Source: a virus. From it: a stretch of 41,247 bases of DNA. Below are positions 38,110 through 38,985 of this stretch, in pieces. The notes under the pieces were generated by a model that worked only from the letters and a program-made list of their open reading frames with translations, was not told the DNA's origin and ran no database searches. The position numbers were made by a program, and so were the translations under genes. The stretch is from IMG/VR virus record IMGVR_UViG_3300025867_000675; one strand, written 5' to 3'. Every line of letters starts with the position of its first letter. Within the stretch, counting starts at the first letter, position 1.

Positions 38110-38985
38110 ATGAAGACCATACTGTGCATCGATGGTGGTGGGATGAAGGGACTCATTCCCACCACGTTTCTCGCAAAGCTTGAAGACACGCAAGGAAAGC
38201 CATGCTACGAGATCTTTGACCTAGTTGCTGGCACATCTGTCGGAGGAATCGTTGCGGCGCTGATCGCGAGTGGAAACACCGCTGCGCAGGCGCTTCACTT
38301 TTTCGACAAGGACGGTACAGACATCTTCAAAAAGAAGCAGTTCATGTCGCTGGACGGGATGTTCAGACCGCGCTACGGCGCCGACAAGATCGAGAAGTGC
38401 CTGAAAGCGCGGTTGGGTGACAACCTGATGAGCAGCGCGAAGATTCCGCTGCTTATCACATCGTTCGACCTGGCGGCGTATGACCCATTCTTCTTCAGGT
38501 CTTACGGAAGTGGAATGTACTACAAGATGTGGGAAGCTTGCCGCGCAACATCCGCAGCGCAGAGCTACTTCCCTGCTTTCAAGCTGACGAATAAAATTCT
38601 GTGGGATGGCGGAAGCGTTTGCAATAACCCGTCGCTAGTTGCGCTATCAGACGCCATCAGCATCTGGGGTAAGGGTGAGGGCTACCGCATCTTGTCGCTT
38701 GGGTGCGGCCAGACGTCAAGCAAGTTCGATCCTGCTTCGATGGCAAACGCTGGTGCCTTGAAAGTTGCGCTTGAAACGGTGTCGCTTATGATTGAAGCGA
38801 ACGACGACCTCCCAACAACTGTTCTCAGCCAGCTGATGGGGAGCAACTACATCCGCGTTCAACCAGAATGCACAGACTTCTCGCTCGATTCTGCCAGTAA
38901 AGAAGACATCGAGAAGCTCAAAGCTGCAGGGGAGGAATGCGCCCGTCTAAACACGGACGTCATTAAGCAGTTCTCAACGAAATAG
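38110..38985 (+). CDS. patatin-like phospholipase
   Basis: DGGGMKG oxyanion motif, GTSVG nucleophile elbow, WDGG catalytic Asp motif. Confidence 0.8.
   Translation: MKTILCIDGGGMKGLIPTTFLAKLEDTQGKPCYEIFDLVAGTSVGGIVAALIASGNTAAQALHFFDKDGTDIFKKKQFMSLDGMFRPRYGADKIEKCLKARLGDNLMSSAKIPLLITSFDLAAYDPFFFRSYGSGMYYKMWEACRATSAAQSYFPAFKLTNKILWDGGSVCNNPSLVALSDAISIWGKGEGYRILSLGCGQTSSKFDPASMANAGALKVALETVSLMIEANDDLPTTVLSQLMGSNYIRVQPECTDFSLDSASKEDIEKLKAAGEECARLNTDVIKQFSTK

Follow-up and report, generated by a model that had tools for sequence, protein, structure and literature searches.

Do phages make membrane lipases of their own, at which stage of infection would they use them, and how would so dangerous an enzyme be held in check? 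These questions are raised by a gene in IMG/VR virus record IMGVR_UViG_3300025867_000675, a 41,247-nt stretch of viral DNA (hereafter the window), which encodes a 291-aa patatin-like phospholipase. As described below, the protein has the catalytic residues and the predicted fold of CapV, the phospholipase of cyclic oligonucleotide-based antiphage signalling systems (CBASS), and it falls in a CapV-like group that is confined to phage-like DNA and lacks the nucleotide sensor, which makes this group a clean test case for phage membrane lipases. The overall explanation that we find best, at about an even chance given the sequence, the structural model and the analogy with CapV, is that the protein would be a cytoplasmic lipid acyl hydrolase acting on host membrane lipids as an accessory killing or lysis factor.

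A complete patatin-like enzyme

The gene, supported by the list of open reading frames (ORFs), Pfam, alignments and an AlphaFold2 model, and its catalytic sites are located as follows.

38110-38985 (+), patatin-like phospholipase gene, 876 nt, 291 aa
38134-38151 (+), GGGMKG oxyanion motif
38236-38238 (+), codon of Ser43
38605-38607 (+), codon of Asp166

We identified all three patatin motifs in the translated protein, namely, GGGMKG (residues 9-14), GTSVG (residues 41-45, containing Ser43) and DGG (residues 166-168, starting at Asp166). The protein matches the Pfam family Patatin (PF01734) with an E-value of 5.5e-23 and a score of 82.6 bits against a cut-off of 27.7, the match spanning residues 5-178 and positions 1-190 of the 191 in the model. 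With its Ser-Asp dyad intact, the gene is what a preliminary description of this DNA had taken it to be, a patatin-like phospholipase with the complete set of motifs. Residues G9-G11, G14, S43, G45, D166-G168 and P174 are invariant across an alignment of 69 sequences, and Ser43 and Asp166 are likewise invariant among 211 aligned sequences. The protein also matches phrog_25573 (1.9e-36), a catalogued phage family without an assigned function.

The AlphaFold2 model built on the 69-sequence alignment has a predicted local distance difference test (pLDDT) score of 93.4 and a predicted template-modelling (TM) score of 0.92, and in this model the protein has the patatin alpha/beta fold. When the model was compared with the PDB using Foldseek, the best matches were CapV (9kh6 and 8zr9, TM 0.88-0.90) and the plant patatin Pat17 (TM 0.86-0.88), with E-values from 3e-25 to 8e-22, followed by CapE at a TM of about 0.8 and, at lower scores, iPLA2-beta, PlpD, VipD and ExoU. 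Both the model and these matches describe a bare catalytic domain without a docking extension. We found no N-terminal signal and no membrane helix in the protein, its sole hydrophobic window being the buried helix around Ser43. Judged from its motifs and model, its identity as a cytoplasmic Ser-Asp lipid acyl hydrolase appears secure, and we would be surprised to see it overturned.

The ORF starts 5 nt past the stop codon of a 705-aa ORF. Public gene calls place the start at Met12, which gives a 280-aa protein that has lost the oxyanion motif. More than 30 homologues start with MKTILSIDGGGMKG, and the ATG at 38110 is therefore the true start. The ORF is real: all 876 nt are 100% identical in four independent assemblies (two from ENA, one from JGI and one from Logan), and neither Ser43 nor Asp166, the residues on which the preliminary description had staked its reading, is substituted in any of them. 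An exact-match search of IMG/VR for the gene returned nothing. A nucleotide search with positions 30000-41247 found no match among 50,697 phage records, and the phage is therefore not close to any isolate.

Comparison with CBASS phospholipases and plant patatin

The best named-family match of the protein is the PADLOC model 'Effector, Phospholipase' (1.1e-63), the NCBIfam model CBASS_lipase (NF041079) aligns with it end to end (1.6e-51), and its best sequence matches in the PDB are CapV entries. Its closest characterised relatives are thus the CBASS CapV phospholipases, a point absent from the preliminary description. CapV kills cells through hydrolysis of inner-membrane phospholipids (PMC12480259). 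Like the query, CapV and CapE (activated by cyclic GMP-AMP (cGAMP) or cyclic UMP-AMP; PDB 8zr9, 9kh6, 9wn0 and 9iom) consist of a single patatin domain, measure about 300 aa and contain all three motifs, and CapV is similarly cytoplasmic and devoid of a signal peptide.

However, the query differs from CapV in several respects. Its CBASS_lipase score of 175.4 bits does not reach the curated equivalog cut-off of 200. We detected no cyclase of the cGAS/DncV-like nucleotidyltransferase (CD-NTase) type among the called genes in positions 2109-50910 of the contig (about 49 kb, from window position 184 to about 10 kb past the window end). Using jackhmmer from six verified cyclases, we found a cyclase near the relatives in only 2 of 80 viral loci and in none of 80 genome loci, and in all four control CBASS loci (L014, L015, L097 and L098). 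The query is also shorter and less basic than CapV (291 aa and pI 6.0, against medians of 324 aa and 7.9), and it has no C-terminal extension.

The same conclusion is reached from the residues that contact the ligand. In AbCapV, F147, K149, D159, E207 and R279 are essential for cGAMP binding, with contributions from E328, T331 and K332 (PMC12480259). As references for alignment we used the CapV of A. pittii, which is 88% identical to AbCapV, and other CapVs with verified cyclase linkage. The loop K-TPH[NH]P..x-[RK]D, which bears the guanine-binding D159, is common to all seven cyclase-linked or solved CapVs, whereas this loop (TPHNP..D) is deleted in the query and in its entire group. Elsewhere in the query, R279 is replaced by Gln and the dimer-interface Trp255 by Val, and the C-terminal contacts are absent, including positions 331-332. 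The positions of F147, K149 and E207 are occupied by Phe, Arg and Asp, respectively; since they are equally conserved in cyclase-less patatins, they do not discriminate.

We built a neighbour-joining tree of 211 sequences, in which the query group first appeared as the sister of CBASS CapV. We rejected this placement, as such a clade was recovered in only 3.5% of 200 neighbour-joining bootstraps and the signature residues (next section) are contrary to it, while the cyclase-linked CapVs were monophyletic in 87.5%. When a profile was made from the query's relatives, plant patatin scored 193 bits with it, less than one CapV structure (208 bits) but more than AbCapV (176 bits), so that what the query resembles is the classical patatins at large. 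Indeed, Pat17 (PDB 1oxw and 4pk9) is a stand-alone enzyme with the same fold and the same Ser-Asp dyad, and we know of no nucleotide ligand for it. By contrast, Pat17 serves for storage and defence in a eukaryote, measures about 360 aa and has additional insertions, and its DGA and AAAP correspond to DGG and SAAQ in the phage protein. On the grounds of the sub-cut-off score, the missing cyclase, the deleted D159 loop and a position outside the cyclase-linked clade, we rejected membership of CBASS CapV; as far as the sequence can tell, the 291-aa protein has the same catalytic engine as CapV and yet is not a member of that family.

That defence models tag this patatin group as a CBASS effector, despite its having no sensor loop and no cyclase, appears to be a new observation, and defence annotators such as PADLOC and PGAP will mislabel these phage genes accordingly. 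A cyclase-less patatin on the Solidesulfovibrio carbinoliphilus chromosome (L008, 5441-8003) even scores 207 bits with CBASS_lipase, above the 200-bit cut-off, so that annotation pipelines will label it a CBASS effector though no cyclase lies nearby.

A phage-restricted group of patatins

The nearest relatives of the protein are all metagenomic and share 40-56% identity with it, and the best match across 185,579 species genomes (one genome per species) reaches only 34-37%. In the tree of 211 sequences, the query belongs to a group of 57 members from metagenomic or viral contigs only; none of the 77 genome-derived sequences falls inside it. Thirteen members carry a viral or prophage label, namely, twelve IMG/VR loci and a 56-kb metagenomic phage-like contig (L010). 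Bootstrap support for the group in a subsample was moderate (0.495). However, its members share clear signatures: Gln replaces the near-universal Pro of ATSAAP in 53 of the 57 (against 1 of 154 sequences elsewhere in the tree), Trp precedes DGG in 50 (against 2 of 154), and none has the equivalent of Trp255, which is present in 141 of the other 154. ATSAAQ and WDGG therefore define the query group as a well-marked lineage at the sequence level, and a signature-marked, phage-restricted patatin group of this kind appears to be new.

Phage-encoded patatins had been called uncommon in the preliminary description. This is right for isolate phages, where we found them in 8 of the 50,697 records (LR745206 among them), but it does not extend to viral metagenomes, as at least 331 IMG/VR stretches encode patatin relatives. 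Earlier reports describe such genes in phage WO (PMC3173496, PMC5062602, PMC9203015), list them among the morons of Burkholderia prophages (PMC2920897), list one as an auxiliary gene in a marine megaphage, and record one in LR745206 (PMC9723777). A literature search found no tested function for any phage-encoded patatin.

In phage WO, where the patatin gene lies beside the tail module and a holin-like gene, a lytic cassette based on patatin has been put forward (PMC9203015). The WO protein resembles the query in being phage-encoded, stand-alone, placed at the end of a gene block and 31-32% identical over its full length, and its function is likewise hypothesised. However, WO has holin-like and ankyrin genes beside its tail module, partners that the query locus lacks, and its patatin, which retains both the proline of ATxAAP and the conserved Trp, lies outside the query group. 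The cyclase-less patatins of bacteria, prophages and megaphages (e.g., the Solidesulfovibrio Mu-like prophage and LR745206) have the same architecture as the query, with RATSAA and LG.G blocks, no conserved neighbour and 28-37% identity to it, but in them ATSAAP has its proline, DGG follows Val or Ile, and the conserved Trp is present.

Genomic neighbourhoods of the relatives

We clustered the neighbouring proteins of 90 loci (80 from IMG/VR and ten others) and found no neighbour family in more than 9 of them. No linked family emerged from 80 genome loci either, where the top 'cluster' consisted of antisense ORF artefacts of high-GC genomes, and the up- and downstream proteins of eight loci shared no similarity, except in the sister phages L005 and L006. 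When 123 neighbouring proteins were scanned against PHROG, the matches were mixed: DNA ligase, endonuclease VII, endolysin, virion proteins and terminase occurred in 1-3 loci each. Patatin is thus a free-floating accessory gene with heterogeneous contexts among the relatives. For instance, it lies near an HNH endonuclease gene on a 101-kb phage-like contig (L005), near a Ro60/TROVE gene on a 71-kb phage-like contig (L006), and between genes for a family-A DNA polymerase plus NAD-ligase and a uracil-DNA glycosylase in L007.

Some of these contexts touch on membranes or lysis. A GH19 endolysin gene directly adjoins patatin in L027 and L095, and lipoproteins or membrane proteins are encoded directly upstream of it in L018, L019, L021-L026, L029 and L030. 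Together with the WO cassette and killing by CapV, these neighbours form a membrane and lysis theme that is suggestive only. Other relatives lie at prophage ends: a distant one follows tail-region genes and precedes a CI repressor gene (L009), and that of the Solidesulfovibrio Mu-like prophage (L008) lies between the gene for an HI1402_helical protein and com/DNA-methylase genes. On IMG/VR jumbo-phage contigs of about 270 kb (L071-L074, 6954-7607), the gene directly after that of a distant patatin relative encodes a secreted protein that resembles non-specific nucleases and has a DRGH motif.

The transcription unit

The patatin gene is the last in an operon of about 5 kb, which runs from a promoter at 33923 to a terminator at 39002 and comprises five small ORFs, the 705-aa ORF and patatin. 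The features of this unit are as follows.

33903-33950 (+), unit promoter, with upstream box AAAATAGTTGCAAATAAATG, -35 TTTACA, a 16-nt spacer with TG, and -10 TATAGT
33960-34058 (+), tRNA-like element in the 117-nt leader between promoter and first ORF, a weak Rfam tRNA-Sec match
34068-35948 (+), five small ORFs of 235, 87, 115, 61 and 51 aa
35987-38104 (+), 705-aa ORFan with a hydrophobic, signal-like N-terminal segment (residues 3-21)
39002-39028 (+), intrinsic terminator, with a 10-bp stem (7 G-C), a 7-nt loop and a T-run, -18.4 kcal/mol
39039-39086 (+), next copy of the promoter element, with a leaderless ATG at 39093
5199-5245, 23036-23082, 28348-28375, 33903-33950 and 39039-39086 (+ at 33903 and 39039), the five promoter copies with a shared core

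The terminator agrees with the preliminary description, according to which patatin closes a transcription unit ended by a strong terminator. We found five near-identical promoters of the sigma-70 type, each about 48 nt, in the window (at 5218, 23055, 28348, 33923 and 39059), whereas the chance expectation for their core pattern is 0.06. The upstream box AAAATAGTTGCAAATAAATG is degenerate in the copy at 28348; where conserved, it may act as an UP element or bind a regulator. An ATG follows the -10 element by exactly 7 nt in three copies (5252, 23089 and 39093), and leaderless mRNAs are therefore implied. The unit downstream of the 39039 promoter begins with small ORFs and includes, within the next 10 kb, genes for dihydrofolate reductase (DHFR), an RNase H-like exonuclease and thioredoxin. 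As the patatin unit has the same type of promoter as this DNA-metabolism region, its sequence suggests early or middle expression, which leans weakly against a late, virion or classical lysis-cassette role.

The preliminary description had likened the gene directly upstream of patatin, that of the 705-aa protein, to tail-fibre or adhesin genes, a label that we find unsupported. The protein has no Pfam or PHROG match, its N-terminus is signal-like, and in a search of 5.8 billion sequences it matched only itself; an exhaustive HMMER scan of 1.84 billion representatives added one further match, of 44 residues (E = 3.6e-05). Its single-sequence AlphaFold2 model (pLDDT 34) is uninterpretable. The five small ORFs have no precomputed Pfam match, and the 235-aa protein has no PHROG match.

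The tRNA-like element in the leader has an acceptor stem, a 6-bp D stem with a 4-nt loop and a GGUUCGAGUCC T-arm, while a long hairpin replaces the anticodon region. It scores 23.4 bits with the Rfam tRNA-Sec model, for which the gathering score is 47 (E = 0.012 on 221 nt), with a fold z-score of -1.57. ARAGORN at default settings found no tRNA in the leader, and Rfam at the gathering threshold had no match in the whole window. Given these results and the replaced anticodon region, we rejected the element as a normal tRNA gene.

The unit just upstream encodes two adjacent proteins of about 460 aa (31130-32515 and 32524-33909, +), the second of which has a signal-peptide-like N-terminus and a precomputed Pfam match to Glyco_hydro_39. 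A secreted glycosidase under an early-type promoter is unusual for a phage.

Proposed role and alternative explanations

In the explanation that we favour, Ser43 would be the nucleophile and Asp166 the general base of a phospholipase A-type reaction, with the GGGMKG segment serving as oxyanion and phosphate-binding loop. Since the protein has no secretion signal, the substrate accessible to it should be the inner leaflet of the host cytoplasmic membrane. Hydrolysis of inner-leaflet phospholipids would weaken or depolarise this membrane, and the enzyme would then help a large uncultured phage, in an accessory capacity, to kill or lyse its host. Any regulation would come from something other than 3'3'-cGAMP at the CapV site. 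The specific role, in which the enzyme would hydrolyse host inner-membrane phospholipids from inside, as CapV does, and so bring about host killing or lysis, is put forward tentatively by analogy, and we would place it somewhat below an even chance. Should the enzyme prove constitutively active, the gene would join the accessory genes for lysis or host damage; should it prove gated, it would represent a new way to control a patatin.

Several observations weigh against this role. Holin, endolysin and spanin genes are absent from the patatin unit (34068-38985), where the only hydrophobic segment is the N-terminus of the 705-aa protein. The promoter is of the same sigma-70 type as that of the DHFR, RNase H-like and thioredoxin unit, and an early, constitutively active membrane lipase would harm phage replication, which implies either an unrecognised control or a different substrate. 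In addition, the ATSAAP Pro is replaced by Gln in the query group, and the Trp whose mutation cripples AbCapV is missing from it, so that altered or reduced activity could be a property of its sequences. The neighbourhoods of the relatives, finally, are heterogeneous.

One answer to the question of control, which we regard as distinctly unlikely, would be that the ATSAAQ/WDGG group consists of phage-specific latent phospholipases, in which a CapV-like engine is kept and a phage-controlled trigger replaces the cyclic-nucleotide switch. Such a trigger could take the form of a partner protein, a different small molecule or an assembly state, and the enzyme would act as a timed alternative to holins in breaching the inner membrane or as a killer of cells superinfected by a competing phage.

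We weighed three further explanations, which rank in the order in which they follow. The first, unlikely in our view, is that the gene would be an auxiliary lipid-metabolism gene or a host-benefit moron, used for fatty-acid release, lipid remodelling, or lysogenic conversion and virulence in temperate relatives. It agrees with the listing of patatins as Burkholderia prophage morons (PMC2920897) and as a megaphage auxiliary gene (PMC9723777), with the relatives at prophage ends adjoining CI repressor or com/methylase genes, and with the early-type promoter. However, a group without a single member in 185,579 species genomes (best match 34-37%) is not typical lysogen cargo, and for action on a eukaryotic host the protein would need a secretion signal, which it lacks. 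An acyl-carrier-protein-like protein encoded about 5.6 kb downstream would also suit a role in lipid metabolism, but the match on which its assignment is based is weak (2.7e-9 over 80 residues).

The second explanation, which we consider quite improbable, takes the protein for an orphan CapV-type effector, that is, a nucleotide-gated phospholipase, latent as long as no cyclic oligonucleotide is present. Its signal could be produced by a CBASS cyclase, either the host's or a co-resident one, or by a cyclase encoded at another place in the phage genome, and the enzyme could serve in superinfection exclusion, in abortive infection against competing phages, or as a decoy that soaks up the signal. 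The named-family matches to CBASS phospholipases (PADLOC 1.1e-63, NCBIfam 1.6e-51), the CapV filaments that are the top solved structures, and the Phe, Arg and Asp at the AbCapV contacts Phe147, Lys149 and Glu207 all point this way, and an early-type promoter would fit a latent enzyme. Nevertheless, these three positions are conserved in cyclase-less bacterial patatins too, the score of 175.4 bits lies below the 200-bit curated cut-off, and the group profile ranks plant patatin (193 bits) above AbCapV (176). Moreover, no cyclase is present among the called genes over about 49 kb of contig, and the protein lacks the Asp159 loop and the C-terminal contacts and has Gln for Arg279, while a decoy with intact catalysis would kill the very cell that it was meant to protect.

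The last explanation, very improbable in our view, is that the enzyme would travel in the virion, together with or close to the 705-aa protein, and open host membranes at entry. A start codon 5 nt past the large upstream ORF and patatin genes at the end of tail or tail-fibre modules in phage WO and several prophages speak for it, but the 705-aa protein has a signal-like N-terminus and no detectable relation to tail proteins, none of the large ORFs tested in the window matched a structural-protein PHROG, the promoter class is common to the downstream DNA-metabolism region, the closest relatives sit among replication genes, and the enzyme is a bare catalytic domain without a docking extension.

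The element and other features

We found no hallmark capsid or terminase gene in the window, and no structural-protein PHROG among the large ORFs tested there. Nevertheless, all genes lie on one strand, small ORFans are densely packed, a promoter is repeated, and there are Lar-like, DHFR, thioredoxin and RNase H-like genes, features that support a phage. The RNase H-like gene has relatives at 66 IMG/VR loci on 65 viral contigs, which likewise supports a phage origin; none of these 65 contigs carries a patatin or any other tested protein of the window. The sequence thus supports a large uncultured phage, and given that contigs of 89.8 kb and 222.7 kb carry genes of this element, the longer one (222,710 bp) including the 705-aa gene, it may be a jumbo phage. 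A search with an N-terminal fragment of a 1410-aa downstream protein found nothing, and a 1046-aa protein has no relatives in IMG/VR.

No lysozyme-type Pfam family or endolysin was recognised among the called genes. Holin- or spanin-like ORFs lie at 16099-16638, 20184-20740 and 21400-21522 (+), more than 16 kb from patatin; among their products, one of 179 aa combines an N-terminal membrane helix with a coiled coil, one of 67 aa has two membrane helices, and a third, of 40 aa, is a lipoprotein with a LAGC lipobox. The window also encodes SPFH/Band_7 proteins at 44-1177 and 2382-3722 (+), the second of which has major-vault-protein shoulder and Vault_3 matches as well, and a Lar-like restriction-alleviation protein at 4405-4983. 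About 5.6 kb beyond patatin, at 46490-47215 of the contig (L001 16423-17148), a 242-aa protein contains a weak acyl-carrier-protein-like domain (phrog_5934, 2.7e-9 over 80 residues), which could hint at lipid-related functions in this phage.

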